DNA from: Eledone cirrhosa
Taxonomy: Eukaryota
Assembly: GCA_964016885.1 (NCBI GenBank)
Contig: OZ024740.1
Coordinates: 311,488,001 to 311,552,000, forward strand
DNA length: 64,000 nt
Direction: 5' to 3'
The number at the start of each line of letters is the position of its first letter. Positions within the stretch are counted from its first letter, which is position 1. The translations under genes and the position numbers were made by a program. A model generated the notes under the pieces. That model did not search any database. It saw only the letters and a list, made by a program, of their open reading frames with translations, and was not told the DNA's origin. Below, piece by piece: positions 8,001 through 61,495 of the stretch.

Positions 8001-11000
8001 GACTAACCACACCAGTTACTACCAGCTTATCAGAAACATTTACCTCCACAGCAAGATAGTGTAGCTTACAGCTGTTTATGAAAATTGTCATGAACATCCA
8101 GCACTGCTTTTGCTCATTTGGATTTCGTACTCTAAATAACACTGATATCTTTTTTTAGGGTTTATATCAAACCTTTCTACTTTTTACACATGGAAGCACG
8201 GCCTAGAATCAAAAGGCCTTAAAATTAACCTGGCTAAGACTAAAGTTCTAGTTTGTAGGAAAGAAAATAAGGCGCCGGTCCCCTCCGGGAAATGGCCATG
8301 CTCAGTGTGTAGGAAAGGCGTAGGTAGAAACTCCATTTTATGTCCCAAATGCAAAGTATGGGTGCATAAAAGATGTAGTGGGATCACAGGTAAGCTAACT
8401 AAGAACACAGATTTTACATGTGGCCAGTGCTCTGGTGCAATAAGTAGCAGCAAATGCCCACAAAATACTAGCTCTTTCAACTGCGTAGATGGTTCCATAG
8501 AAATAGTGGATAGCTTCCGTTACCTGGGTGACAAAATCAGCAGTGGGGGAGGGTGCTCTGAAACTACAGTAGCTAGAGTCAGAACTGGATGGAAAAAGTT
8601 CAGAGAGCTTATACCACTATTAGCCGCTAAAGGGTTCTCCCTAAAAATGAAAGGCAGGTTGTATGATGCCTGCATACGAACAGCAATGTTGCATGGCAGT
8701 GAGACCTGGGCATTGTGTGCAGAGGATATACGCAGACTAGAGAGGAACGAAGCTTGCATGCTCCGCTGGATGTGTAATAGTAATATACGTGAACGGCAAA
8801 GCATAAACGAACTAAGGAAAAAATTAGAAATAAGAGGGATCAGATGTTGTTTACTCGAGAGAAGGCTACGTTGGTATGGTCACGTGATGCGCATGAAAGA
8901 CGACAGCTGTATAACAAAGTGCAGGGCAATAAAGATAGATGGTAGCCACGGAGTAGGCAGACCCAGGAAAACCTGGGACGAGCTGATAAATTCCGACCTC
9001 ACACACTTACACCTCTCCAAGACAATGTCACTGGACCGAGCCCTTTGGCGGTACTCAGTAACAGAGAAGACCCGCCTTACCTAAATACAAAGTAAAACCT
9101 ACTACAGTCAGTAGGCATCTCTAACAAGATACACCCCCATCCCCACCACCCCTACCCCATCCACTCCGCCCCCTTCAATGCAAAGTTATGTTGGTGCCAC
9201 AACATCCAGGCCGAAACAAATGAGATCGTGTAGGTGTCACGACAAAATACACACAGTCCACGCTGTAATGTGGCCGTGTAGGCAACACGGTAAAAACCTC
9301 CCAGCCCCACACTGTAAATGTGGTTGGTGTTAGGAAGGGCATCCAGCTGTAGAAAACACGCCAGACAGTCCACGCTGTAATGTGGCCATGTAGGCAACAC
9401 GGTAAAAACCTCCCAGCCCCACACTGTAAATGTGGTTGGTGTTAGGAAGGGCATCCAGCTGTAGAAAACACGCCAGACAGTCCACGCTGTAATGTGGCCA
9501 TGTAGGCAACACGGTAAAAACCTCCCAGCCCCACACTGTAAATGTGGTTGGTGTTAGGAAGGGCATTCAGCTGTAGAAAACCCGCCAGACAGTCCTATGC
9601 GAGCAAGACAACCACTCTTGCCTCAAGTGGGAAAACCCCCATCCAAACCCATGCAAGCGTGGAACAGGGACGTTAAACGATGATGATGATGATGATGATG
9701 ATACAAGGGGTACTCTCTAAAGAACTACATACTCAACTCCAAGCAGCATGTTCACTCCACTATTTTGGTACCTTACAATACATATATCACTAAATATAAA
9801 CATCAAGCTGTTCACAAATGAGAATCAGAAAAAAGATTGACAATTCTAGAAAGGATATCACAAAAGGCTCCTTTGTGTGGAATTTCTTGATTTCTGTCAA
9901 TTGTCCGGATTTGATCAATGGTTTTGATATCAGGAGATAATCCTCCATGTACACACAGGATACATTCATCAATAATCTATCAATACAAAAAAAAGACAGA
10001 AAATATATAAACTAAAACAACAATAAGGCAATCAATACGGTATTACAATTATTAATCAAATAAATATAGTTTACTAAACAAGATACAATATTTGTTTGTT
10101 TCATATTTTTTGTTTGTTAAAAGAGACAAATAAATCTACAGAAAAAGTCCAACTTGTCAGTTGGTCATTTTGGTGCCATGATGCAAAATACCCACTCTAT
10201 TCTGTAAATATGGTTGGTTTGAAGAAGGGCATCCAGTCATAGAAACCAAGCCAGAAACAGTTCTGTATGAACAAGACACGGTCACCTGATCTGACTTGTC
10301 TCAGAAAACTCACTTATCCCATGCTAGTATGGAAAATGACATTAAATGGTGACAATGGTGATGATGATCAAGAATAATTTAGAGACATCAAAAAGAGAGG
10401 GATTAAATGTTGGCACAATGCAAGTACAGTTAAGCTGTTGGACAACTGATCACAAAAATGGCCATATGTTCAGATTACAGTCATTGTTTTGTGGCCTTCA
10501 GCAAATTAAATAACTGCCTGACTAAATAAAACTACAGGCTCTATTGCCTACTTCACAGGTGAATGGTTAACAGCAAAAAGAGCATTCAGCTGTAAAACAC
10601 AACTAATCCAACAGGTAAATGGATCTAAAAGAGTAAAAAAAATTATATATAGCTAAAGGTAAATTGCTGTTAAGTCAACACTAAATGTTTTTGTTTTTTT
10701 TAAATGGATTAACTATTAAATGGTTTGTTAAAGCTAGTAACAAACTATTTTATATAAAGAATACTGAAATACTTACAGCAGCAATAGTCAGAAGATCAAA
10801 TACTTTACAACAATATCGCCATGCATTGGCATTGCCATATTTTGTTTGACACTCATCTGAAGTTAAAGAGGATTGGTTTAAGCAACAGTGAAAATGAAAA
10901 AATATGAAAAGTTACCAAAATGATTTTTTTTTTAAATCTAATCAAATAAGTCTAATACAACAAGGAATTAACAAAGTTAGAATAAGACTGTGTTCTCTTC

Positions 11001-14000: not shown

Positions 14001-15911
14001 ATGTCTGATATGTTGTAAAAGAGTTAGTATGGATTCCATACTGTCCCCTTTATAAATCATGGATGCACAAAAGACGTAGTGGTATCATTGCCAGGCTATT
14101 GGAGTAAGTAGATTTTGAATGCAGCAGATGCACATGGATTGTAAGCAGTCAAAGCTTATATTAACTAGATGACGTAACTGGCAGTAGAGGTGGGTGGTCT
14201 GAAAACATATTAGCTAGAATAAAAATACGATGGCAAAAGTTCAAAGAGCTATTAACTCTACTGGTAACAAAGACTTTCATTGTCAGAGTAAATGACAGGC
14301 TGTATTATATTTATGTACAAAGTGTAGTGCAACATAATAGTAAGATGAAAGCCTTCATGGGATTTACTAAGACTAGAAAGAAATGAAGTGAGTATGCTTC
14401 ACTGGATGTGTAATGAACGATGTGGAACAAGTAGACACAAGAAAACATAGAATGTTGTAGTGAAGACTGATCTTAGGAGACTGAATCTCAGGTTAGTGAC
14501 ATGATACTGGAGATAACCCACCCATTCATGCGAGCATAACAAAATGAGTGTCCTGCAGTTTGCATCTACCAAATTCTCCTCACAAGGTATTGATCAAACT
14601 GAGCTAACACTTGCACAAGATGCCAAATATGTTTGAACCTGGAAGCATGTGGTTGTGGAGCAAACTTCTTAACCATACTGCTATACCTGCCATTTATAAT
14701 ATAATACATTTAACATGTAAACTTTTCATGCTAAGAAGACTGTTTCGAAGTTCCACCTTTTTGATATCAAACTTCCTGAAGCCGTCCCTGATTCTATAAT
14801 ATAAAACTGTGTTTTAAGGTATTAATATTTAGCTAAAACCCTTCTACCATATTTCTTTGTAAAAACCTTTTAAAGTTATATTCCAAACATCAGCTTAGTA
14901 ATGAGAAAGTTAATTATTTTACTAAATCCCTCCAAATTCTTGATTATTTTGAAAATGATTTGAAAACCATAGACAGTGTCTTTCATTAGAAATATAGTAA
15001 CACGTGCTAATGAAATGTAATTACTTACCATAAATACATAATGTTTATCTGGCATTTCACCACCAGTACGGAAAAGAGCCATCAAATCATAAAACTGGAA
15101 ATAAATACGCAGGTAAGTGATGAAAAAATACTCCAAATAATGAAATAAAAGCATTAAAAAACAATATTTTTTATCAGTAGAAGTTAATTAAAATCAAGAT
15201 AATGCAAAAATACACCAACAAAATTTTTTTATAAATTGGATAGCTGGGTCAGATAAGGGAGTGCAGAACTCATGGACATTTGTGAAGCCTCATTGAGAGG
15301 TAGGAGGAGAAGAGGGAGGGGAAAGAAAAAAAAAATCACAATTCATAAGTTGTTGAGTAGGATGCAATGCATCAGAATATCGAGTTATTCTCAAAACAGA
15401 GACCTAGTCAAAATGCTTGCAGCAGAGTGGACTCTGCTAAAGAAACTCAAATGCTGAGTGGTGGCACTGAGTCAACAACATTGTTCCAGTTTACTCAGCT
15501 GTGTAGAAATGAGATGATAGGCCTGGGGTCCCTATCATTCCACTGCAAAGTGGTCGTGGAGGTGCCACGGCAAAAAAGCACCCAGCCCACACTGTAAAGT
15601 GGACGTGTAGGCGCCACGGAAAAAAAAGCACCCAGCACTTACTGTAAATGAGGCTGGTGTTAGGAAGGGCATCCAGCTGTAGAAATCAAGCCAGAATCAG
15701 TTCCCGTATGAGCAAGACAAGGTCAGCCAACAGGACAATCCGTCTAACCCATGCTAGCGTGGAAGAATGGACATAAACGGTGATGATGATGGTGATGAGT
15801 ACAGAGGACTCTTTAGTAATGCAGAGGTCATGACAATCCACCAAGAGCTGCTGCCATAATAAAAAGCACACAGTACACTGTAAAGCAGTTGATATTAAGG
15901 CAGGCATCCAG

Positions 15912-15943
<32 letters not shown>

Positions 15944-18900
15944 GGTTTAGCGTCCGTGTTCCACGCTTGCATGGGTTTGGACGGGGGTTTTCCCACTTGA
16001 GGCAAGAGTGGTTGTCTTGCTCGCATAGGACTGTCTGGCGGGTTTTCTACAGTTGGATGCCCTTCCTAACACCAACCACATTTACAGTGTGGGGCTGGGA
16101 GGTTTTTACCGTGTTGCCTACACGGCCACATTACAGCGTGGACTGTCTGGCGGGTTTTCTACAGCTGGATGCCCTTCCTAACACCAACCACATTTACAGT
16201 GTGGGGCTGGGAGGTTTTTACCGTGTTGCCTACACGGCCACATTTACAGCGTGGACTGTGTGTTTTTTTGTCGTGACACCTACACGATCTCATTTGTTTC
16301 GGCCTGGATGTTGTGGGACCAACATAACTGTACATTGAAAGGGGCGGTGTGGATGGGGTGGAGGTGGTGGGACGGGGGGGGTGTTTTGATAGAGATGCCT
16401 ACTGACTGTAGTAGGTTTTTACTTTGTATTTAGGTAAGGCGGGTCTTCTCTATTACTGAGTACCGCCAAAGGGCTCGGTCCAGTGACATTGTCTTGGAGA
16501 GGTGTAAGCGTGTGAGGTCGGAATTTATCAGCTCGTCCCATGTTTTTCTGGGTCTGCCTACTCCGTGGCTACCGTCTATCTTTATTGCCCTGCACTTTGT
16601 TATACAGCTGTCGTCTTTCATGCGCATCACGTGACCGTACCAACGTAGCCTTCTCTCGAGTAAACAACATCTGATCCCTCTTATTTCTAATTTTTTCCTT
16701 AGTTCGTTTATGCTTTGCCGTTCACGTATATTACTATTGCACATCCAGTGGAGCATGCAAGCTTCGTTCCTCTCTAGTCTGCGTATATCCTCTGCACACA
16801 ATGCCCAGGTCTCACTGCCATGCAACATTGCTGTTCGTATGCAGGCATCGTATAACCTGCCTTTCATTTTTAGGGAGAACCCTCTAGCGGCTAATAGTGG
16901 TATAAGCTCTCTGAACTTTTTCCATCCAGCAGTAGAAACAATACTCAGAATAGAATATACGAACAAGATGTTGTCCCTTGAGCCATCTAGAAAGACAGTA
17001 ACTCCCAATACGAATTGACTCAGACTGTAACAACCATGCAGTATGAAAAGCAGACGTAAAATGAAAATGACGATGCAACTTCAAAGGAAGGAATAAAGTA
17101 GTTATCCAGCAAAGTATCTACTACATATTAATAGTCCATGTAAATTGTTGGTATATTAAATACTACACAGAAAATACAACACTTACCTGTCCATGAATAT
17201 CTCCACATACAATAACTGGTGTTGACACAGGCTGTACATTGGATTCTTCCAGTAAAAGTTCACATACTAGTTCACATAGTTTCTATAATAAAAACCAGAA
17301 GACCATTTAAAACCCTGCTTTACTTAGAATTTAAATAAATATATCTTCAACTCACAAGTGTTTGAATGTTATTGAATAGGGAAAATATAGATATTAAGTT
17401 ATTAAGTTTGAAGTTAGAAAAAATTGGCAGAAGAAAATGCTTTAAGCTCAAATTTAAGGACCACTGCCAGGTACTGATTGTGGACCCTATTGAATGCTTT
17501 CAATTGATCTAAGTTGATAAGTGTCCCACCTGTGCCAGCTCTCTTTGATGTATTGCATAAGGTGAAGGTTGTTGTGGATTGATCTCTTCAGAATGGCATG
17601 TCTGTGCCTTCCCTACGAAACCACAGACGAAAAGCAGCAACCTAACACCTTGGCTAAAATTTTGAACTCTGCATTTAGTAAAGTTATGTGCCTAAAATTA
17701 TCAATATAATCCCCTTTGTTTGGGTCCTTTCTCAGCAGTGCCACTGCTCCTTAGCTCACAGAACTGAGAATTCTCCCATTCTGCTACCAGTTGCAATAGA
17801 CATCTGCCAAGAGGTCACCGAACAAATTTGGCATATAAATGTAAAGCTCGTAGGGCAGACCATCCAAACCAGGTGATTTTAGTCATTGCCTCTTGTATTT
17901 CAGCAGCTGTTATTGGCTTTTTGCAACAATCCCCCTATTTTACCGAAAACCGCAGCAGGCCATCAAGGTAGGCATTTAAAGTCCATCCCACTATCTGGCC
18001 CACTGTTGCTCCCGCACAGTTGAGTAAAGTGCTGCTGGAAAGTCACACACATCTGCTTGGGATCAAGTAACATGCACCCATCGTGGTGTGCTAAAGATAG
18101 GATTGTGACTTTGTTGCTACACTGTGCCTCCACCATTCAGGCCCATTGAACAACTTTCGTCCTCACGCATCTAAGAGCAGACACCTTAGCTCTGACAATG
18201 CAGCCTTCATAATTAACATTGAAGAATTGGTCCAGGGCCAATCTCACCACAAGCATGTTGGTTGTAATGCCTTTGCTAATTGCTTCTTCTAATTTTCTCT
18301 ATTGCTACGACTTTACTAGACCTTATCAATTCTACTCTGATCGCCCTGAAAATGGCGAACCACCATTTGTTGGTCGTCGGGTTGGTGTTGATGCTGGTAG
18401 CGGGGTGTAGGTGCATGTATTTGTTGGTTTCTGACTTTTGCATCTATTTTTAGAGGATATAGAAGTTTTTTTTTGGGGGGGGGGGGGCACTCCTCATCCT
18501 CGTCTGAATTTAGGTTCAACTATGTGACAACAGGGAGTGGCATGTCTTCGATGGACGTTGATGTTGTTGTTCTTCGTCTTAAGTGTTGATGATGATGTTA
18601 TTGTCTGAGTTTTGCTAGTTGTTGTAGCTGAGTTTTTTTTTTGCTGTTTGTAGGAGAGGAATATCCTCTCTTTCCCTTTCAAATTTGAGCAGGAGGTTCT
18701 TAGGTGATTTGTCGAAAGACAAATGTGACACTTGGCCATCCTCCATTCTACCCTAATGAGTAGGATGATGCCACCTGGGAGACGTATCTGTTCTGGAATG
18801 GCGTCCACATTCCTTTGATTGGTTTGAATTGGGATTTCAACCTCCGTCTCTGACCAGTTATCCTTTAGTCTGGTAGACTTCGAGGATTTTCAAGTTTTTC

Positions 18901-32097: not shown

Positions 32098-34510
32098 CAT
32101 CATCAATCATCATCGTTTAACATCTATTTTCAACACTAACATGCGTTATATGGGTATCCCTTTTGAGGCAAGTCAAGTGAGAAGACCGTGTCTTGCTCAT
32201 ACAGAACTGTTTCTGACTTGGTTTCTATGGCTGGATGCCCTTCTTAACGCCAACCATATTTACAGTGTGGACTGGGTGCTTTTTGCTATGACACCTACAT
32301 GATTGCTTTACACTGTGGACTGGATGTTTTTTTTATTGTAGAACCATAACAACCACTTTACAGTGTGGGCTAGGCACTTTTTGTTGTGGCACCAAAACGA
32401 CCACTTTATAGTGTAAATTGGGGCTGATGTGGGGATGGATGTGTAAAAGCATGGATGAAGGGTGGTGTATTAGGGCGTGAGAATGTATGGAAGGAGGGAA
32501 GATGGGGATTAAGTGGGGCATACTAGAATATCTGCTTCAACCTGTGTGCATCGGAAGACGGGACTTCTGTATTACTGCATAACATCAAAGATCTTGATCC
32601 TGTGTTATTGCCTTTGAGAGGTGCAATTGTGCAGAGTCAGCTTTTATTACCTCAACCCAGGTCTTCCTACTCCAATGCTTCCATCAACTTTGATCGCCCT
32701 GCACCTTTTTATACAGCTGCCATCCTACATACCGCTCACATGGCCATACCAACACAATCTCCTCTCCTGCACACTGATCCCTCTTATGCTCAATTTCTAT
32801 CTCAGTTCATTTACACTATGCCATTGATATATATTACTATTACTCATCCATCAGAGCATGCAGGCTTCATTTCTTTCCATGCAACATTGCTGTTTGTATA
32901 CATGCATCATACAGTCTACCCTTCATTTTGAGGAAAAAACGTTTTGTAACTAGCAGGGGTAGTAGCTCCCTGAACTTTCTCCATCCCATTCTCACTCTGG
33001 TTACTATGCTTTCAGAACATTCTCATCCACTGATAATTTGGTCACCCAGGTAACAAAAACTGTTGACTATTTCTACAGAGCCTTCCAGGCATTTGAGGGA
33101 GCTAGTATCCAGTGAGTCCTTGTTACTTACTAAACCTATGCATTGGCTACATAAAATCAATGTTCTTTGATAGCCTGCCTGTGATCCCACTACATCTCTT
33201 GTGTAACCATAGCTTGCATTTGGGGCATAGGATGGAAATTCTACTTACTCCTTTACTGCACACCGAGCAAGGCCATTTCCCTGAGGGAATCTAGGCTTTG
33301 TTTCCTTTAGTCTTTGACAAGTTGACTTTAAGACCTTTTGATTCTAGGCCATGCTTCCAAGTTTGGAATGTTGTCTCTAATTCTGCCATAGATTCAGCTT
33401 TAAGGGTTAGATTATCTGCACACAGAAGTTCCCATGGGAAGCCAGTCTTGAATTCTTCTGTTATAGCCTGTAGGGCAATAATAAACAAGAATGGGCTAAG
33501 GATGGATCCCTGAGGGACCCCAACCTGCACGCTAAATTCTTCACTATAGTCATTTTTAATTCTAACTTTGCTGACTGTTCCTCTGTACATGTTTTGTCGC
33601 TATAGTCATTGTTAATTCTAACCTTACTGACTGCTCCCCTATACATGGCTTGTACAGCCTTCACAAGTCACTCATCTACTCCTAGTTTGCTAAGTGCCCA
33701 CCAGATAATGGAATGGGGGACTCTGTCAAAAGCTTTCACCAGGTCAACAAAAGATAAGTAGTGGGGTTTACTTTTAGCTAGGTACTTCTCCTCTAGTTGT
33801 CTCATGGGGAAGAGAGCATCCATGGTACTTTTACCTGGCACAAATCTAAACTGCATTTCATCTAGGCTAACTCGATCCCTAATCAGCTGTGCTATAACTT
33901 TTTCTGTGATCTTCATGTCCTGGTCAACCAACTTGGTACCTTTAAAATTTTCTCTATCTAGAGCATCTCCTTTGCCCTTGTAGCAGTTGACAATGCTGCT
34001 GCTATGCCAGTCATTGGGTATGATGCCATTTTGTATTACTTGGTTTACAATATGGGTGACTCTGGTATGACCCACGATCCCAGATGCTTTCAGCATCTCA
34101 GTAACTACCCCAAAGGTCCAACAGCTTTGCCTCTCTTCATATCCTTGATTGCCTTACTTAATATACTACTGCTGACATACATAACCAGTCCTTCTCTTGA
34201 GTCATCTTAGAGCAAACTATCTTCTTCCCATGCATTCTCCTCATTTATTAGTCTTTCATATGGTACTACAATGCTACCTTGTTTTCAGCTTCAGTGAGGG
34301 CGAGTACCCCATTATCATCATGGACACACTTCTCCTCATCAACATCACAATTTTCCATGCAACCTCGCAATCCTGAACACCTCATGCATTTGGTCCTTGC
34401 ATTGCAGAACATGCATAAATTTTTATTTTCTGCTTCTCTTCTTGAAAAGTACACTTGTCATCCAACTTCTCCCCTAGCCTCCTGGAAGTGTTCTCTACTT
34501 TCCCCATCCC
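32098..34510 (-). mobile_element. Older frameshifted RTE LINE (RT domain through 3' UTR)
   Basis: ORF pieces with YKGKGD, FVDLVKAFDRVP, VGVPQGSILSPFLF, ELLCAD and GLKVNLSKTK; (GAT)n tail near 32100; internal tandem duplication of about 50 bp at 33540-33650. Confidence 0.9.
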
Positions 34511-34784
34511 ACCATTCTTTCCATATATATATACGGATGTACAAAACCACCTAGTCCACCCTGTAAGGTGGTTATGTTGGTGACACATCAAAAACTACCC
34601 AGTCCACCCTGTAACATGGTTGGTGTTAAGTAGGTCATCCAGCCATAGAAACCAATTCAAAATACAGATCTTTATCAGCAAGACATGGTCTCTTGACCTG
34701 AATAGTCTCATAATGTGATAACGTGACAACTTGTCTAACCCATGCAAGCATGGAAAATGAACATTAAATGATGATGATGATATA

Positions 34785-34854
<70 letters not shown>

Positions 34855-34961
34855 ATTAGTACATCTACCAACATATGCGTACAGATGTACACTAATACTA
34901 GTAAATATATAAGTTATGTCAAAGTACCTAGGTGGTTCAATGCAGGGAGATGCAGAACAAT

Positions 34962-35276
34962 TATATGAACGACGTAAAATAAGAAAATTTAAAAAATTTA
35001 AAATTAACTTACTTACTAAAATTTTCACTCCAACTAATTAGTTTCTGTCATGGGATAAATATAGTTACGCAATGTAACTATCGAGAATTCATTACGTCAT
35101 CAGAATTCATTACGTCATCAGAATTCATTATGTCATTAGACTCACTGATGACGTAATGAATTCTCGATAGTTACATTGCGTAACTATATTTATCCCATTA
35201 CAGAAACTAATTAGTTGGAGTGAAAATTTTAGTAAGTAAGTTAATTTTTAATTTTAAAATTTTCTTATTTTACGTC

Positions 35277-35285
<9 letters not shown>
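34962..35285. repeat. Long foldback palindrome (arms of about 141 bp) with a hammerhead-like motif
   Basis: Arms 34962-35103 and 35145-35285 are reverse complements with only a few mismatches. The centre has 18-bp GAATTCATTACGTCATCA repeats, and the element abuts (TA)n. Confidence 0.95.
35140..35221 (+). ncRNA. Putative degenerate type I hammerhead ribozyme (Penelope/retrozyme-like)
   Basis: ACTCA-CTGATGA-c-GTAATG...CATTAC-a-GAAAC-TAATTA-GTT-GGAGT; mismatches at the core-proximal pairs of stems I and II. Confidence 0.45.
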
Positions 35286-35319
<34 letters not shown>

Positions 35320-35404
35320 GACAGGCAAAGCTGTTGGACCTTTGGGGATAGTTACTGAGATGCTGAAAGCATCTGGGATCGTGGGTCACACCAGAGTCAC
35401 CCAT

Positions 35405-35790
35405 GGAGGCACATGGCTTAGTGGTTAGAGCATTGGCCTTGCAATCGAAAGGTTGTCAGTTCAATTCTCAGACTGGGTGATGTGTTGTTTCCTTGAGCAA
35501 GACACTTTATTTCACATTGCTCCAGTTCACTCAGCTGTAGAAATGAGATGATAGGGACGGGGGTCCCTATCATTCCACTGCAAAGTGGTTGTGGAGGTGC
35601 CACGGCAAAAAAGTACCCAGCCCACACTGTAATGTGGACATGTAGGCGTCACGGAAAAAAAGCACCCAGCACTCACTATAATTGAGGTAGCTGTTAGGAA
35701 GGGCATCCAGCTGTAGAAATCAAGACAGAATCAGTTCCCGTCCCACCCTTGCAAGCAGGGAAAAGCGGACGTAAAATGAAATGATGAAAT
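35405..35790 (+). mobile_element. tRNA-derived SINE with CORE-like centre and RTE-derived tail (family 1)
   Basis: A-box TGGCTTAGTGG, B-box-like GTTCAATTC, CCTTGAGCAAGACACTT centre, and tail AAGGGCATCCAGCTGTAGAAA...(GAT)n shared with the RTE 3' UTR. Confidence 0.85.
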
Positions 35791-40905: not shown

Positions 40906-45907
<5,002 letters not shown>

Positions 45908-47979: not shown

Positions 47980-49680
47980 TTGATCAGGCCGACGTAGGGC
48001 TAAAAATTCGTTAGAACGATTAAAATCACTAAATGTTTTTCATAACGAAATTAAAAACAGTATAATTTTGGGGGGTTATTAATGCATTAGTGAATCTTCT
48101 TTTAAACTATTTATTAATCTGAAAATGTATAACCATATTTCTTAAATACTTCAGGATTTCGAACGTGACTGCCTGGAAGTTCCTACACTTATTTAGAGTT
48201 TGATATAAAAAAAAAACGTGAAGATTAAGGATGTATTTCGAGTATAATTTGAAGAAAGACAATTAAAATTATCATTCTTTAAACAAAACAAAAAATAATA
48301 ACGATAATCAGAATAGGAAATATTTAAGTAAAATTATAAAATTGTTTACATTTGAGATATTAGAACGAGTTTAGTCATTTGATTAAGAGTAGCTTTGCTG
48401 AAACACAAGCAATATAAGTTTCGTATAATAAATTATTCATTGCAGTGGATTTAATTTTAACTATAACTTAATTGATTTTTTAAAATATTGTTATATTAGT
48501 GTGTTTTGTTTTATTCTGTAGACTTTTGAATTTATAAAGTTTACCTAATTTGTTATGTCAAAGTAAACACATTTTAAAGATTAAAAATGGCGGCCGTCGG
48601 TAAAAGTCCATCGAAACGGAAATCAACAAAGTTAAAAAGTTCTACTGGTAATTCATTAGGTGCTCCTCCAGCTTCGAAAAAGAAGAAATCGAATCCTGTA
48701 AGTATCAATAATATGTTAGTTTCAATTAAAATTGTCGAATTGAAATGCTATTTTCCTCATTTTAATACACGTAAAGGCGGTATGTTGACAATCGTTAGAT
48801 CACCGGGCATGGTGCTTGTAGTATCTAATTACAGAACTTTACACATTGAGTTCAAATCCTGCCTAGGTCGATCACTATAAAACACCTTAGGTGTGAATGA
48901 GATTATGATAGAAGGCAAAAACGTTTCTCGTCGTTATTATAGAGCAATTATTTCCCTTTATATTTACCTGTTATATGCTCCCTTACGTAAGTAAAAAGAA
49001 GCTTCGAATGTATAGAAGTAGGAATTTGTGACATTCATGCTTTTCTCAACGACATAAGTGACATATCTGAAGCGTTGCTACAAACACAGAAACTGACTTG
49101 CGATCTCTATTCGCTGAAAACTTACTACTTCGGTACGGAACTTGTTCTATAATCGATTCAAATATCTAGGTTTGGAAGTGAATATTTTCTTTTAACTAAT
49201 CTTCAAGTTTCATCGCCACTTGAAGATTTTCTTTTATTATTGCATTTCATGTTTAACATGTATAATTGACGATATAAATATCTCTCCTTTCATATACTAT
49301 ATATCCTGTTGATTGCTTAACTTTTCATTGTTAGTCGTGTATCGGGGAAAGGTAATTTCAACATTATATACATTTCACAAAAAAGGTTAACGACACAGCT
49401 TGATAACGTTTGTCCACTTCATTTTGCGGTCCGGTTACGTATGCAGAGTTTGAGAAGGTGGGTGGTCCGCATTTGGTTTGTCGAATTCGAAGGGTGATTT
49501 AGGTTTGGTTTGGCCGGAGTCATGAGTTCAGGTTGGCGTTCGGTTTAGGATGTTTACTGAGTTTTTGTGGACTGATTGGAGCAATAACGGTCGTATTTAC
49601 CTCTATAATCTGGTGTAACGAAAATAAAAAAGAAAGCATCTGTAAACACTCGGCTTATCGGGAAATGCTGTTTGCGCTAT
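47980..49680. promoter_or_regulatory. Probable shared/bidirectional promoter region of METTL5 and INO80C
   Basis: Head-to-head start codons 2.7 kb apart; CpG is visibly retained here compared with the flanking introns. The TSS cannot be determined from sequence. Confidence 0.5.
48587..48697 (+). CDS. INO80C: INO80C coding exon 1 (basic, NLS-like: MAAVGKSPSKRKS...KKKKSNP)
   Basis: AAAATGG start context, GTAAGT donor, phase 0. This part is poorly conserved, so it is less certain. Confidence 0.8.
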
Positions 49681-59093: not shown

Positions 59094-59330
59094 TTAAGTA
59101 CGTTTTTGAGATGCAATGTAATTAGTTGTACCTGTAGAGTTAATTAATGGGGTATCTACAAAAGTGACGATGCACGGATCTCCTTCATTACAGGGAGCAG
59201 ACTCTAGTTCAAATAGCACAACAGTGTTTACACCTGGTACTAATAAAGTTTTAGGTACAAATAATCGGATTTGAGGACCTTTGGTTGACCAATATCTTCC
59301 TAAATTAAAGCCATTGATGTACACTTGACC
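59094..59330 (-). CDS. Terminal exon of a GH35 beta-galactosidase (GLB1/GLB1L-like); upstream exons were not found and presumably lie beyond the window
   Basis: CAG|GQVYINGFNLGRYWSTKGPQIRLFVP...NTVVLFELE matches the GH35 C-terminal motif GQVxINGFNLGRYW..GPQ; TAA at 59094-59096. Confidence 0.9.
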   Translation of the reverse strand, partial: GQVYINGFNLGRYWSTKGPQIRLFVPKTLLVPGVNTVVLFELESAPCNEGDPCIVTFVDTPLINSTGTTNYIASQKRT

Positions 59331-59349
59331 CTGAGTAGAAAACAAAGAT

Positions 59350-61495
59350 AACAATAATAATAATACAATAATAATAACAATGCTTTCTTTATTAACCACA
59401 AGGGTTTACACAAAGTAAGACATTAAGGACAATACAGGACGGTACAAATGGGCATTTCTGTGTGTAAAAAAACCCAAAAAACAGGATGTAACAAAAAAAG
59501 AAACAATGAAAAATTCCCCAATAGGGGGGAGACTTCCAAGGGACATTCGTGGAGAAAGCCCATTAAAAAAGCCACGGTGACCCTGACCACCAGGGCAAGT
59601 GCCCTCTCCCAGTTTTCCATCTTCAATTTACAGGCACATACTCAGAGTAGGCCCATTCACACGAGCCATTCTTGCCTCTCTCACCCATCTTTCAACAAAA
59701 TGCTAGGAAGAGAGCACTTCCCTCTCTACCCTGATTTTCCTTTTCAAATGAAATTTGAAAAAGTTAATCAGGGCATCACCGAAGCCCTTTCAAACGCGTC
59801 CACCATACTATCTCTTTTGCCATGGCCACCAGACAGATAAAGGAAGAGAGCCGGGAAATCCTCACGATGGACTCAGCTGATAGCCGGATCCGTCCTACAT
59901 GCGACAGCAGAGGTTCGACATAAACCCACAAGTCAGCAATGCTCGGACACGTGCAGGACGGTTTTGTCGTCCTGCGCGCATCTCAACATGCCCGGCTGAC
60001 GGCACCTCCGTGCCTGTAGAGTTTATCCTTAACTGGCAAAGCTCCTCAGTAGCACTGGCAGGCCAGGGATTTCTGGAAGTTGTCCATAGGCCCCGGCCCG
60101 AAAGTTCTTCTGAAGAGATTGGCTAGTTGATTTTCGTTGATGCCTAGAGTTTCCCCAAGTACGTCGTCGCTCTTCCCCTCCACTAATCCTCTATAGAACG
60201 TCAAGGTGGAGTTTCCACCGATCACATTGCCCGATTGGTCGAGGGCTGTGAGCGCCTGAAGACATTCCAGTCTCCAAGCGCTCCCTCTCGGTCTTCGCTT
60301 GACCCAGGACTGCAGCTCCGTCAAGGAGACGAGCTGGGGAAAGACGTGTCTAGCAAACGGCGACCAGACCTGATTACCGTCGAGGAAGAGGTGGAGATGT
60401 CGTAGCCTGAGCGCGTGTCTGTGCATCATCAGCTACGACATGCCCAGCCCTCCACGTAGTGGGTGTTGACAACAGATGGACCGGCTGACCATCGGAGCGT
60501 GTCCCTTCCACAAAAAGAGAAAGAGCAAACGCTCCAGCGCAGTCAGGCGAAGCTTAGGACAAGGCACGACGGTCAGGCAGTAGTAGATGATGGACGCGAT
60601 GTACGCATTCGCCACCTCCGCTCAACCTTTCAGGGATAGCTTCCTCTCTGCCCACTTTGTGAGAGAAGTCACCCTGCTCGTCACCTCGTCCTAGTTTTTG
60701 TGTCTGGAGGTCCGGACTGAGCCAGAGCTCTAGCAATGTAACAGGTCCGTCCGTCTGTCCAACACCCGACGATGCTGTTGGACGGCATGGACCTGCCTCT
60801 CCAGTTGCCAAGCTGCAGGCCCACCAACTTTTCCGATCATTGCTCCTGTCACTGCTTCGTATTCTCTTAGTGTAGTTCTGATCGCCTCGATGTGTTTGGC
60901 GTTCGACACCACTACAGTGACATCATCCGTATATGCTGACACGGATCTTCCGCATCCTAGTCCACGCGGGACCCCCCTCAATGTCTCCAGTTTGTGCAGT
61001 AATGGCTCGTGAGTCAATGCGTACAACAGGGATGAGAGGGGACATCCTTGGCGGACTGAGTGCATGATGTTGAACGGTTCCGAAAGATGACTGTTCACTC
61101 TTACCACAGAGCAGATGTCGCTGCCAGATAACAATGGTCGACCCTATCGAAAGCTTTCGACTGATCTAAATTGATCAAGGACCCACCCGTGCCAGGTTCC
61201 CTAGCTACCCTCTCCACGATGTATCGCATGAAGTGGGGGTTGTCGTGGATGGGTGTATGGAATGACGCATGTCTGCGCCTCTCCCACCAGACCACCAACG
61301 ACAAGCGCCAACCTCTTTGCTAACACCTTGGCCAAAATCTTGAACTCTGTGTTTAGCAGAATTATGGGCCTGAAATTATCTATGTTATCCCCCTTGTTCG
61401 GATCCTTTCTCAGCAGCGCCACCGCTCCTCGGCTCACAGAGCTGGGAATTCTCCCATTCTGTTGCCAGTTGCAGTAGACGTCTGCCAAGAGGTTT
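59350..61495 (-). mobile_element. 5'-truncated L1/Tx1-clade LINE ORF2 (RT and C-terminus) in the last intron of the beta-galactosidase gene
   Basis: [48 protein letters not shown] and GGLGM motifs across frameshifts; AATAAA at 59388-59393 followed by a (TTA)n tail. Confidence 0.9.

Follow-up and report, generated by a model that had tools for sequence, protein, structure and literature searches.

A fold-back insertion in Eledone cirrhosa contig OZ024740.1 contains a motif that resembles a type I hammerhead ribozyme, and raises the questions of which kind of mobile element gave rise to it and whether this copy could still cleave RNA. The locus lies in a stretch of 64,000 nucleotides, referred to here as the window. 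It had originally been predicted to be the remnant of a Penelope-like element or retrozyme. The findings described below indicate, with a probability of roughly 0.8, that the insertion derives from a Penelope-like retrotransposon, which probably belonged to the Hydra clade, and is the severely 5′-truncated 3′ end of that element, with a hammerhead motif in one arm that is predicted to be inactive. It is likely an ordinary dead Penelope-like remnant of an already described kind.

Elements of the Hammerhead-Like Motif

The core boxes, stems, inner hairpin, palindrome, and GTT triplet originally described for the plus strand were all found in their places when the sequence was checked (Table 1). 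The boxes CUGANGA, GAAA, and NUH are present and in order, stem II starts with the G10.1-C11.1 pair and has the optional extra base on either side, and stem III with its loop is formed by a perfect 10-nt palindrome. Two features expected of Penelope-type hammerheads are lacking. Loop II, expected to span 3-10 nt, is 37 nt long in the plus motif, and positions 2.1-1.1 of stem I are occupied on the plus strand by an A.G couple, followed by four Watson-Crick pairs; the minus strand is without stem I. The A.G couple and the 37-nt loop are the true departures of the plus motif, and with these two departures the plus copy is best called a degenerate remnant.

Table 1. Positions of the fold-back insertion, its arms, and the parts of the hammerhead-like motif (window coordinates).
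Feature	Position	Strand	Details
Fold-back insertion	34962..35285	.	324 bp; two copies of the 3′ end of one element, head to head, 3′ ends outward
Inverted arm	34962..35103	-	Second core and tail
Minus core	CTGATGA 35103-35097; GAAAC 35045-35041; GTT 35034-35032	-	
Extra tandem repeats of the core's first 18 nt	35104..35139	-	Two copies: 35121-35104 exact, 35139-35122 with two changes
Turn of the fold-back	35140..35144	+	5 nt; doubles as what is left of the stem I 5′ strand
Type I hammerhead-like motif	35140..35221	+	More complete of two copies; from sequence, descriptor, folding, shuffles
Stem I	ACTC 35140-35143 / GAGT 35218-35221	+	A 35144 opposite G 35217 at base
First core box	35145-35151	+	CTGATGA = C3-A9
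Extra base after first core box	35152	+	C
Stem II	GTAATG 35153-35158 / CATTAC 35196-35201	+	6 bp; first pair G10.1-C11.1
Loop II	35159..35195	+	37 nt; 8x8 internal loop, then inner hairpin
Inner hairpin of loop II	35167-35174/35180-35187	+	Perfect, 8 bp, 5-nt loop
Extra base before second core box	35202	+	A
Second core box	35203-35207	+	GAAAC; G12-A15.1 = 35203-35206
Stem III, self-complementary	35205-35216	+	12-nt palindrome; perfect 10-nt palindrome at 35206-35215 (ACTA-AT-TAGT)
NUH site	35214-35216	+	GTT; U17 = 35216; predicted cut after 35216
AT-rich 3′ tail	35222..35281	+	60 nt, from stem I to TA run
(TA)17 microsatellite	35282..35315	.	Inferred target

The consensus of Cervera and de la Pena (2014; PMC4209133) reads CUGANGAH-G...C-GAAAN-palindrome-NUH-AU-rich, and the descriptor from that study permits stem II to be flanked, 5′ and 3′, by one optional extra base. 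The plus motif matches the consensus of their Fig. S3 in the H after A9, the G10.1-C11.1 pair, the palindromic 15.2-16.2 segment with loop 3, and the AU-rich 3′ flank, whereas it falls outside the descriptor, which specifies a loop 2 of up to 10 nt, no loop 3, and a stem I paired at the core. The extra A before GAAA is shared with one of the 56 rows listed in PMC4209133.

Comparison with Hydra-Clade Penelope-Like Elements

The motif was compared by eye with the hammerheads in a table of 25 Hydra-clade families (Craig et al. 2021, PMC8557442). As in these families, the plus motif has CUGANGA with an extra base, an extra base before GAA, and GUU as the NUH triplet; a U at the cut is listed for 10 of the 25. 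A stem III of 9-10 nt running from AC to GU is found in 25/25 families, and the 10-nt AC..GU stem III of the present element (ACTA-AT-TAGT) resembles that of Penelope-1_HM (ACTA-T-TAGT). This stem III and the probable (TA)n target are typical of Hydra-clade elements, though not a definition of the clade; every family with a listed target prefers (TA)n. The short AT-rich tail (60 nt) is shared as well: in 23 of 24 families stem I lies 26-149 nt away from the 3′ end, and in one the distance is 351 nt (a count that leaves aside Penelope-18_HMa, whose listed motif sits at the 5′ end). The element differs from the Hydra-clade hammerheads in its 37-nt loop II with a hairpin of its own (3-10 nt in the families), in the A.G closing pair of stem I (base paired in 25/25), and in having no coding sequence attached. 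Long forms of loop II appear in the table in only two plant rows, which are flagged as non-canonical. Taken with the fit to the published consensus, this comparison supports the original reading of the motif as a Penelope-like type I hammerhead whose stem III is palindromic.

The core-proximal couples of both stems had been regarded as mismatched, and only one of them appears to be damaged. The A.G couple of stem I is a real defect, whereas the C.A couple at the base of stem II is probably native, because the descriptor of Cervera and de la Pena tolerates additional bases there and 15 of the 25 Hydra-clade families are unpaired at that couple (14 U.U, one U.C); the Chara family PLE-X1_cBra has the same C.A (PMC8557442).

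The host and a published Octopus family also favor a Hydra-type Penelope origin, which is considered likely. The nearest gene found, METTL5 (rRNA m6A methyltransferase; exons at about 40909-45476, minus strand, ending ~5.6 kb to the right of the element), has a middle exon that is 85% identical to that of Octopus sinensis and 69% identical to that of Argonauta (best two of 91), in keeping with an octopod, and Hydra-1_Obim of Octopus bimaculoides is an already published Hydra-clade family with a hammerhead (PMC8557442). By eye, the published 3′ ends of Hydra-1_Obim, Naiad_Obim, and Naiad_Ovul, as available, bear no resemblance to the fold-back element. An origin from a Naiad was considered because the Naiads of Octopus and Euprymna have a "half core", a 35-50-nt spacing, and TA targets (PMC8557442); it was rejected on the dissimilar Naiad_Obim and Naiad_Ovul 3′ ends and on the Naiads being without canonical stems, as far as the available description goes. 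For Octopus vulgaris, 31 recently active Penelope-like families have been reported, in a text whose available part makes no mention of hammerheads (PMC13282606).

Chance Expectation and Model Searches

The CTGANGA box by itself is not enriched in the 64-kb window (25 observed versus 28.3 expected). An initial, stricter descriptor, in which at least 5 of 6 stem I pairs were required, gave no matches and missed the plus motif itself. A second descriptor, built after that of Cervera and de la Pena and widened post hoc so that loop II could be long and stem I could contain one mismatch, gave a single match on the two strands of the 64 kb, the plus motif, and did not pick up the minus core. In 2,390 window-equivalents simulated with a third-order Markov model, the widened descriptor gave no matches when a stem II of at least 6 bp and stem I were both required, three matches when stem II was relaxed to at least 3 bp, and five when stem II was kept at 6 bp or more and stem I was not required. 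When the core boxes were held fixed and the rest of 35130-35232 was shuffled, a stem II of at least 6 bp, a palindrome with UH, and a stem I with 4/5 pairs occurred together in 45 of 300,000 shuffles. Four of the five spacer positions form Watson-Crick pairs with the 3′ strand of stem I, with a chance of 0.009 (0.17 if G.U is allowed). The motif exceeds chance by a large margin, although the post hoc widening flatters these figures somewhat.

The proposed search with Rfam models gave no support, as no hammerhead family was present among the 35 and 4 matches obtained at E<=10. The matches to mir-569 and mir-4856 over the element, far under their gathering scores, reflect its hairpin shape. A scan of a metagenome collection yielded six loci, all of them chance matches over short stretches only (best E 0.022), and a 22-nt motif had no matches in viral contigs or prokaryote genomes, as expected for animal DNA. 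Parts of the stretch were present in 9 of 14 sequencing runs listed, with no RNA run among the listed holders.

Fold-Back Architecture and the Probable TA Target

Alignment of the two arms revealed 138 identical bases among 142 aligned, with four substitutions and one internal indel. All four substitutions (34970, 34991, 34999, and 35049) are transversions, which is unexplained, the number being small. Read in the hammerhead sense, both arms point outward, run through a 60-nt AT-rich tail, and stop at the same letters, an inverted 5′-truncated copy being joined head to head to the other; Penelope-13_HM also has an inverted 5′-truncated copy (PMC8557442). The hammerhead lies near the 3′ end of the arm, and the right end of the fold-back runs into the (TA)17 tract, with only TATAT adjoining the left end. 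The center is lopsided, as the minus arm opens with three tandem copies of an 18-mer, which appear to have arisen by slippage at the fold-back junction. The second core that had been proposed for the minus strand does exist as a mirror core, but its stem II is broken by one change (35049) and the 5′ strand of its stem I is absent. Opposite-strand pairs of hammerheads, 100-700 bp apart, have been reported (PMC4209133), and the two cores of the present element resemble them in their opposite orientation. The 37-nt loop II was found in both arms and was therefore present in the template.

Comparable structures are usual among Penelope insertions; for endonuclease-bearing elements, head-to-head inverted terminal copies with palindromic junctions were read as the products of self-priming (Arkhipova et al. 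2013, PMC3846280). The present insertion resembles the inverted pLTR insertions of that study in its inverted terminal copy, head-to-head arrangement, palindromic junction, AT-rich target, and ~200-bp scale. It differs from them in its short arms of only ~140 nt, in its triplicated 18-mer, and in lacking an ORF and an 8-10-bp duplication of the target. The two arms end alike, without a one-sided 30-40-bp tail, and nothing was seen of a target duplication beyond TA-unit repeats of 4-5 bp; tail and duplication are both called optional in PMC8557442 and PMC3846280.

A GIY-YIG domain was found in none of 148 reading frames scanned with Pfam, an absence expected for a 140-nt truncation. The scan covered 146 of 509 stop-to-stop frames of at least 45 aa (24-47 kb, high complexity, not overlapping 34780-35330) and two others, and its only two reverse-transcriptase matches both came from a LINE-type fragment 0.8-1.7 kb away.

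Proposed Origin of the Insertion

A mechanism compatible with this architecture may be outlined. An element-encoded GIY-YIG nuclease would nick the (TA)n tract, and reverse transcription would proceed for ~140 nt from the RNA 3′ end through the uncleaved hammerhead, halting within the stem I 5′ strand. The nascent DNA would then turn back around the 5-nt spacer and copy itself, giving rise to the inverted arm, with two slips during this self-copying, both across the 18 nt that open the core. The template RNA was presumably uncleaved or rejoined, because the motif is continuous across the cut site. In vitro work on an anole Penelope-like element identified uncleaved RNA as the main insertion substrate, and reported cleavage at AT-rich sites and a protein-assisted hammerhead (Frangieh et al. 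2024, PMC11167929). The hammerhead of the parent element is likely to work as a Penelope-type dimer ribozyme, which would cut after GUU as a dimer formed through the palindromic stem III, perhaps with the assistance of a protein.

Predicted Folding and Activity

When the motif was folded alone, the predicted pair probabilities were 0.76 for stem I, 0.98 for stem II, 0.95 for the inner 8-bp hairpin, and 0.11 for stem III (monomer). The best fold of the isolated motif (-18.1 kcal/mol) pairs the core with the palindrome and hides the core; the hammerhead fold lies at -13.3 to -14.5 kcal/mol, that is, 3.6-4.8 kcal/mol above it. A homoduplex of the 10-nt palindrome was estimated at -9.0 kcal/mol and corresponds to the usual dimer route with a second copy. 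Penelope-type hammerheads are reported to cleave poorly and to need dimers or an extended stem III (PMC4209133), and their cleavage as dimers has been reviewed (PMC6765202).

In longer plus-strand RNAs, stems I and II had a probability of 0.0 for five of six start points, the exception being a start at 35138, and in minus-strand RNAs stem II did not exceed 0.012 from any of the six start points; the minus core never folds in these predictions. For the RNA of the whole fold-back, the predicted structure is a hairpin with an energy near -200 kcal/mol. Because each core is transcribed after its own antisense arm, a read-through RNA would be a long hairpin rather than a ribozyme. The dimer cleavage originally suggested fits the palindromic stem III, which is of the dimer type, but the usual dimer is excluded within one RNA, because the two cores belong to opposite strands and, in the predicted folds, the arm facing each core traps it. 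With the A.G closing pair of stem I, no partner on the same strand, and the antisense arm transcribed first, the present copy would collapse into a hairpin. The figure legend in PMC4209133 describes mutant dimers designed to break the stem I closing pair. The probable inactivity put forward earlier is supported by the A.G couple and by the antisense trapping in the predicted folds; the present copy is predicted to be inactive where it sits, and any transcript of the fold-back would be no ribozyme but a substrate in the form of double-stranded RNA.

Alternative Explanations

The palindrome as a whole might be a non-autonomous mobile unit, a retrozyme-like or MITE-like unit derived from a Penelope end and copied with both of its arms, although this is unlikely. 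Such a unit would be consistent with the near-identical 31-mers that other data sets contain (of 29 words, a share of 0.52 in three runs from a single sample, and shares of 0.34 and 0.21 in two further organisms and studies), which may reflect either a dispersed family or an orthologous locus; four further runs, with word shares of 0.07-0.17, were given no weight. The truncation almost exactly at the 5′ edge of the hammerhead is also in its favor, as is the proposal that animal retrozymes derive from Penelope terminal repeats (bioRxiv 10.64898/2026.07.22.740005). The element shares with animal non-LTR retrozymes a non-coding, AT-rich sequence, a type I hammerhead, and a Penelope relationship. 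The described animal retrozymes, however, are head-to-tail tandems of ~300-bp units with one hammerhead each (PMC7229834; bioRxiv 10.64898/2026.07.22.740005), and the "retrozyme" part of the original prediction fits less well than a Penelope 3′ end because the element is one head-to-head pair, with no tandem repetition. The lopsided center is what a one-off junction would leave, the RNA of such a unit is predicted to be a long hairpin unable to form the ribozyme, and no other copy of the fold-back was found in the 64-kb window.

Somewhat less probable still is a fold-back DNA transposon (MITE) with a preference for TA targets, in which the hammerhead-like pattern arose by capture or chance. 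The arms, ~97% alike, make up nearly the entire unit, both ends adjoin TA, the sequence is rich in short palindromes and is not recognized by the Rfam hammerhead models, and Octopus vulgaris has active MITEs and Tc1-mariner elements (PMC13282606). Chance is nevertheless a poor source for the motif, given how rarely the shuffles reproduced it even with the core boxes supplied and how well the spacer at the turn complements the 3′ strand of stem I (p about 0.009, Watson-Crick). The motif also has the outward orientation and the position, 60 nt from the end, that are seen in Penelope 3′ ends, and it matches the Hydra clade in its details. That the palindrome is an artifact of fold-back reads or assembly, or the motif a product of chance, is very improbable. 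Read errors could account for all four arm substitutions being transversions, but the mirror symmetry breaks off at one and the same short end in both arms, does not extend into the flanks, and is disturbed at the asymmetric center; the Penelope palindromes of Adineta have been argued not to be assembly artifacts (PMC3846280), and an artifact leaves the motif itself, as assessed by descriptor simulations and shuffles, unexplained. The severely truncated Penelope-like 3′ end is therefore preferred over these three explanations.

Genomic Surroundings

The fold-back is flanked by decayed pieces of LINEs and SINEs. Decayed LINE fragments, which by their motifs may belong to the RTE clade, occur at 33000-34500 (minus strand), 8146-9084 (plus), and 16430-17080 (minus), the first with RVT_1 matches and a frame for a PHD-like finger. 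A 92-bp inverted copy of a LINE reverse-transcriptase fragment (35313-35404, plus strand) is 97% identical to 34052-34142, 1.2 kb apart; it starts at the end of the (TA)17 tract and is directly followed by a SINE. It may be a local templated copy from the same event as the fold-back, as its divergence equals that of the fold-back arms. The SINE-like repeat (35404-35741) starts with a tRNA-like head, which scores 25.6 bits with the Rfam tRNA model (under the gathering score), and is 93% identical to 41359-41695 and 91% to 15478-15707. Besides METTL5, the window contains a C-terminal exon of beta-galactosidase at 59097-59405 on the minus strand (Pfam PF21467, E 3.6e-13), and a frame at 48578-48880 on the plus strand with MAAVGKSPSKRK... 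and basic stretches, a possible first exon that had no Pfam match.

Implications for Penelope-Like Elements of Octopods

No report of the family of this element, or of a long-loop hammerhead in cephalopods, was found in the literature covered, most subscription papers as well as Dfam and Repbase being outside that coverage.

By itself, the element matters little, as such motifs are abundant in animal genomes, with thousands per genome (PMC4209133), and one has already been published for Octopus (PMC8557442). In hammerheads of the Hydra type, it would be wrong to count as decay a stem II whose basal couple is unpaired. The 37-nt loop II, if retained in other copies, would mark a variant that is missed by standard searches. 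A more far-reaching, and rather doubtful, proposal is that an undescribed Penelope-like family exists in octopods, with a hammerhead in which stem II is conserved as two parts, 6 bp and 8 bp, on either side of an 8x8 loop, a variant that escapes Rfam and the published descriptors. If so, descriptor-based surveys would have overlooked a class of ribozymes, perhaps including the "half-core" cases. The octopod lineage is one of heavy RNA editing, and in such a lineage the fold-back remnants of a family of this kind would seed long double-stranded RNA.
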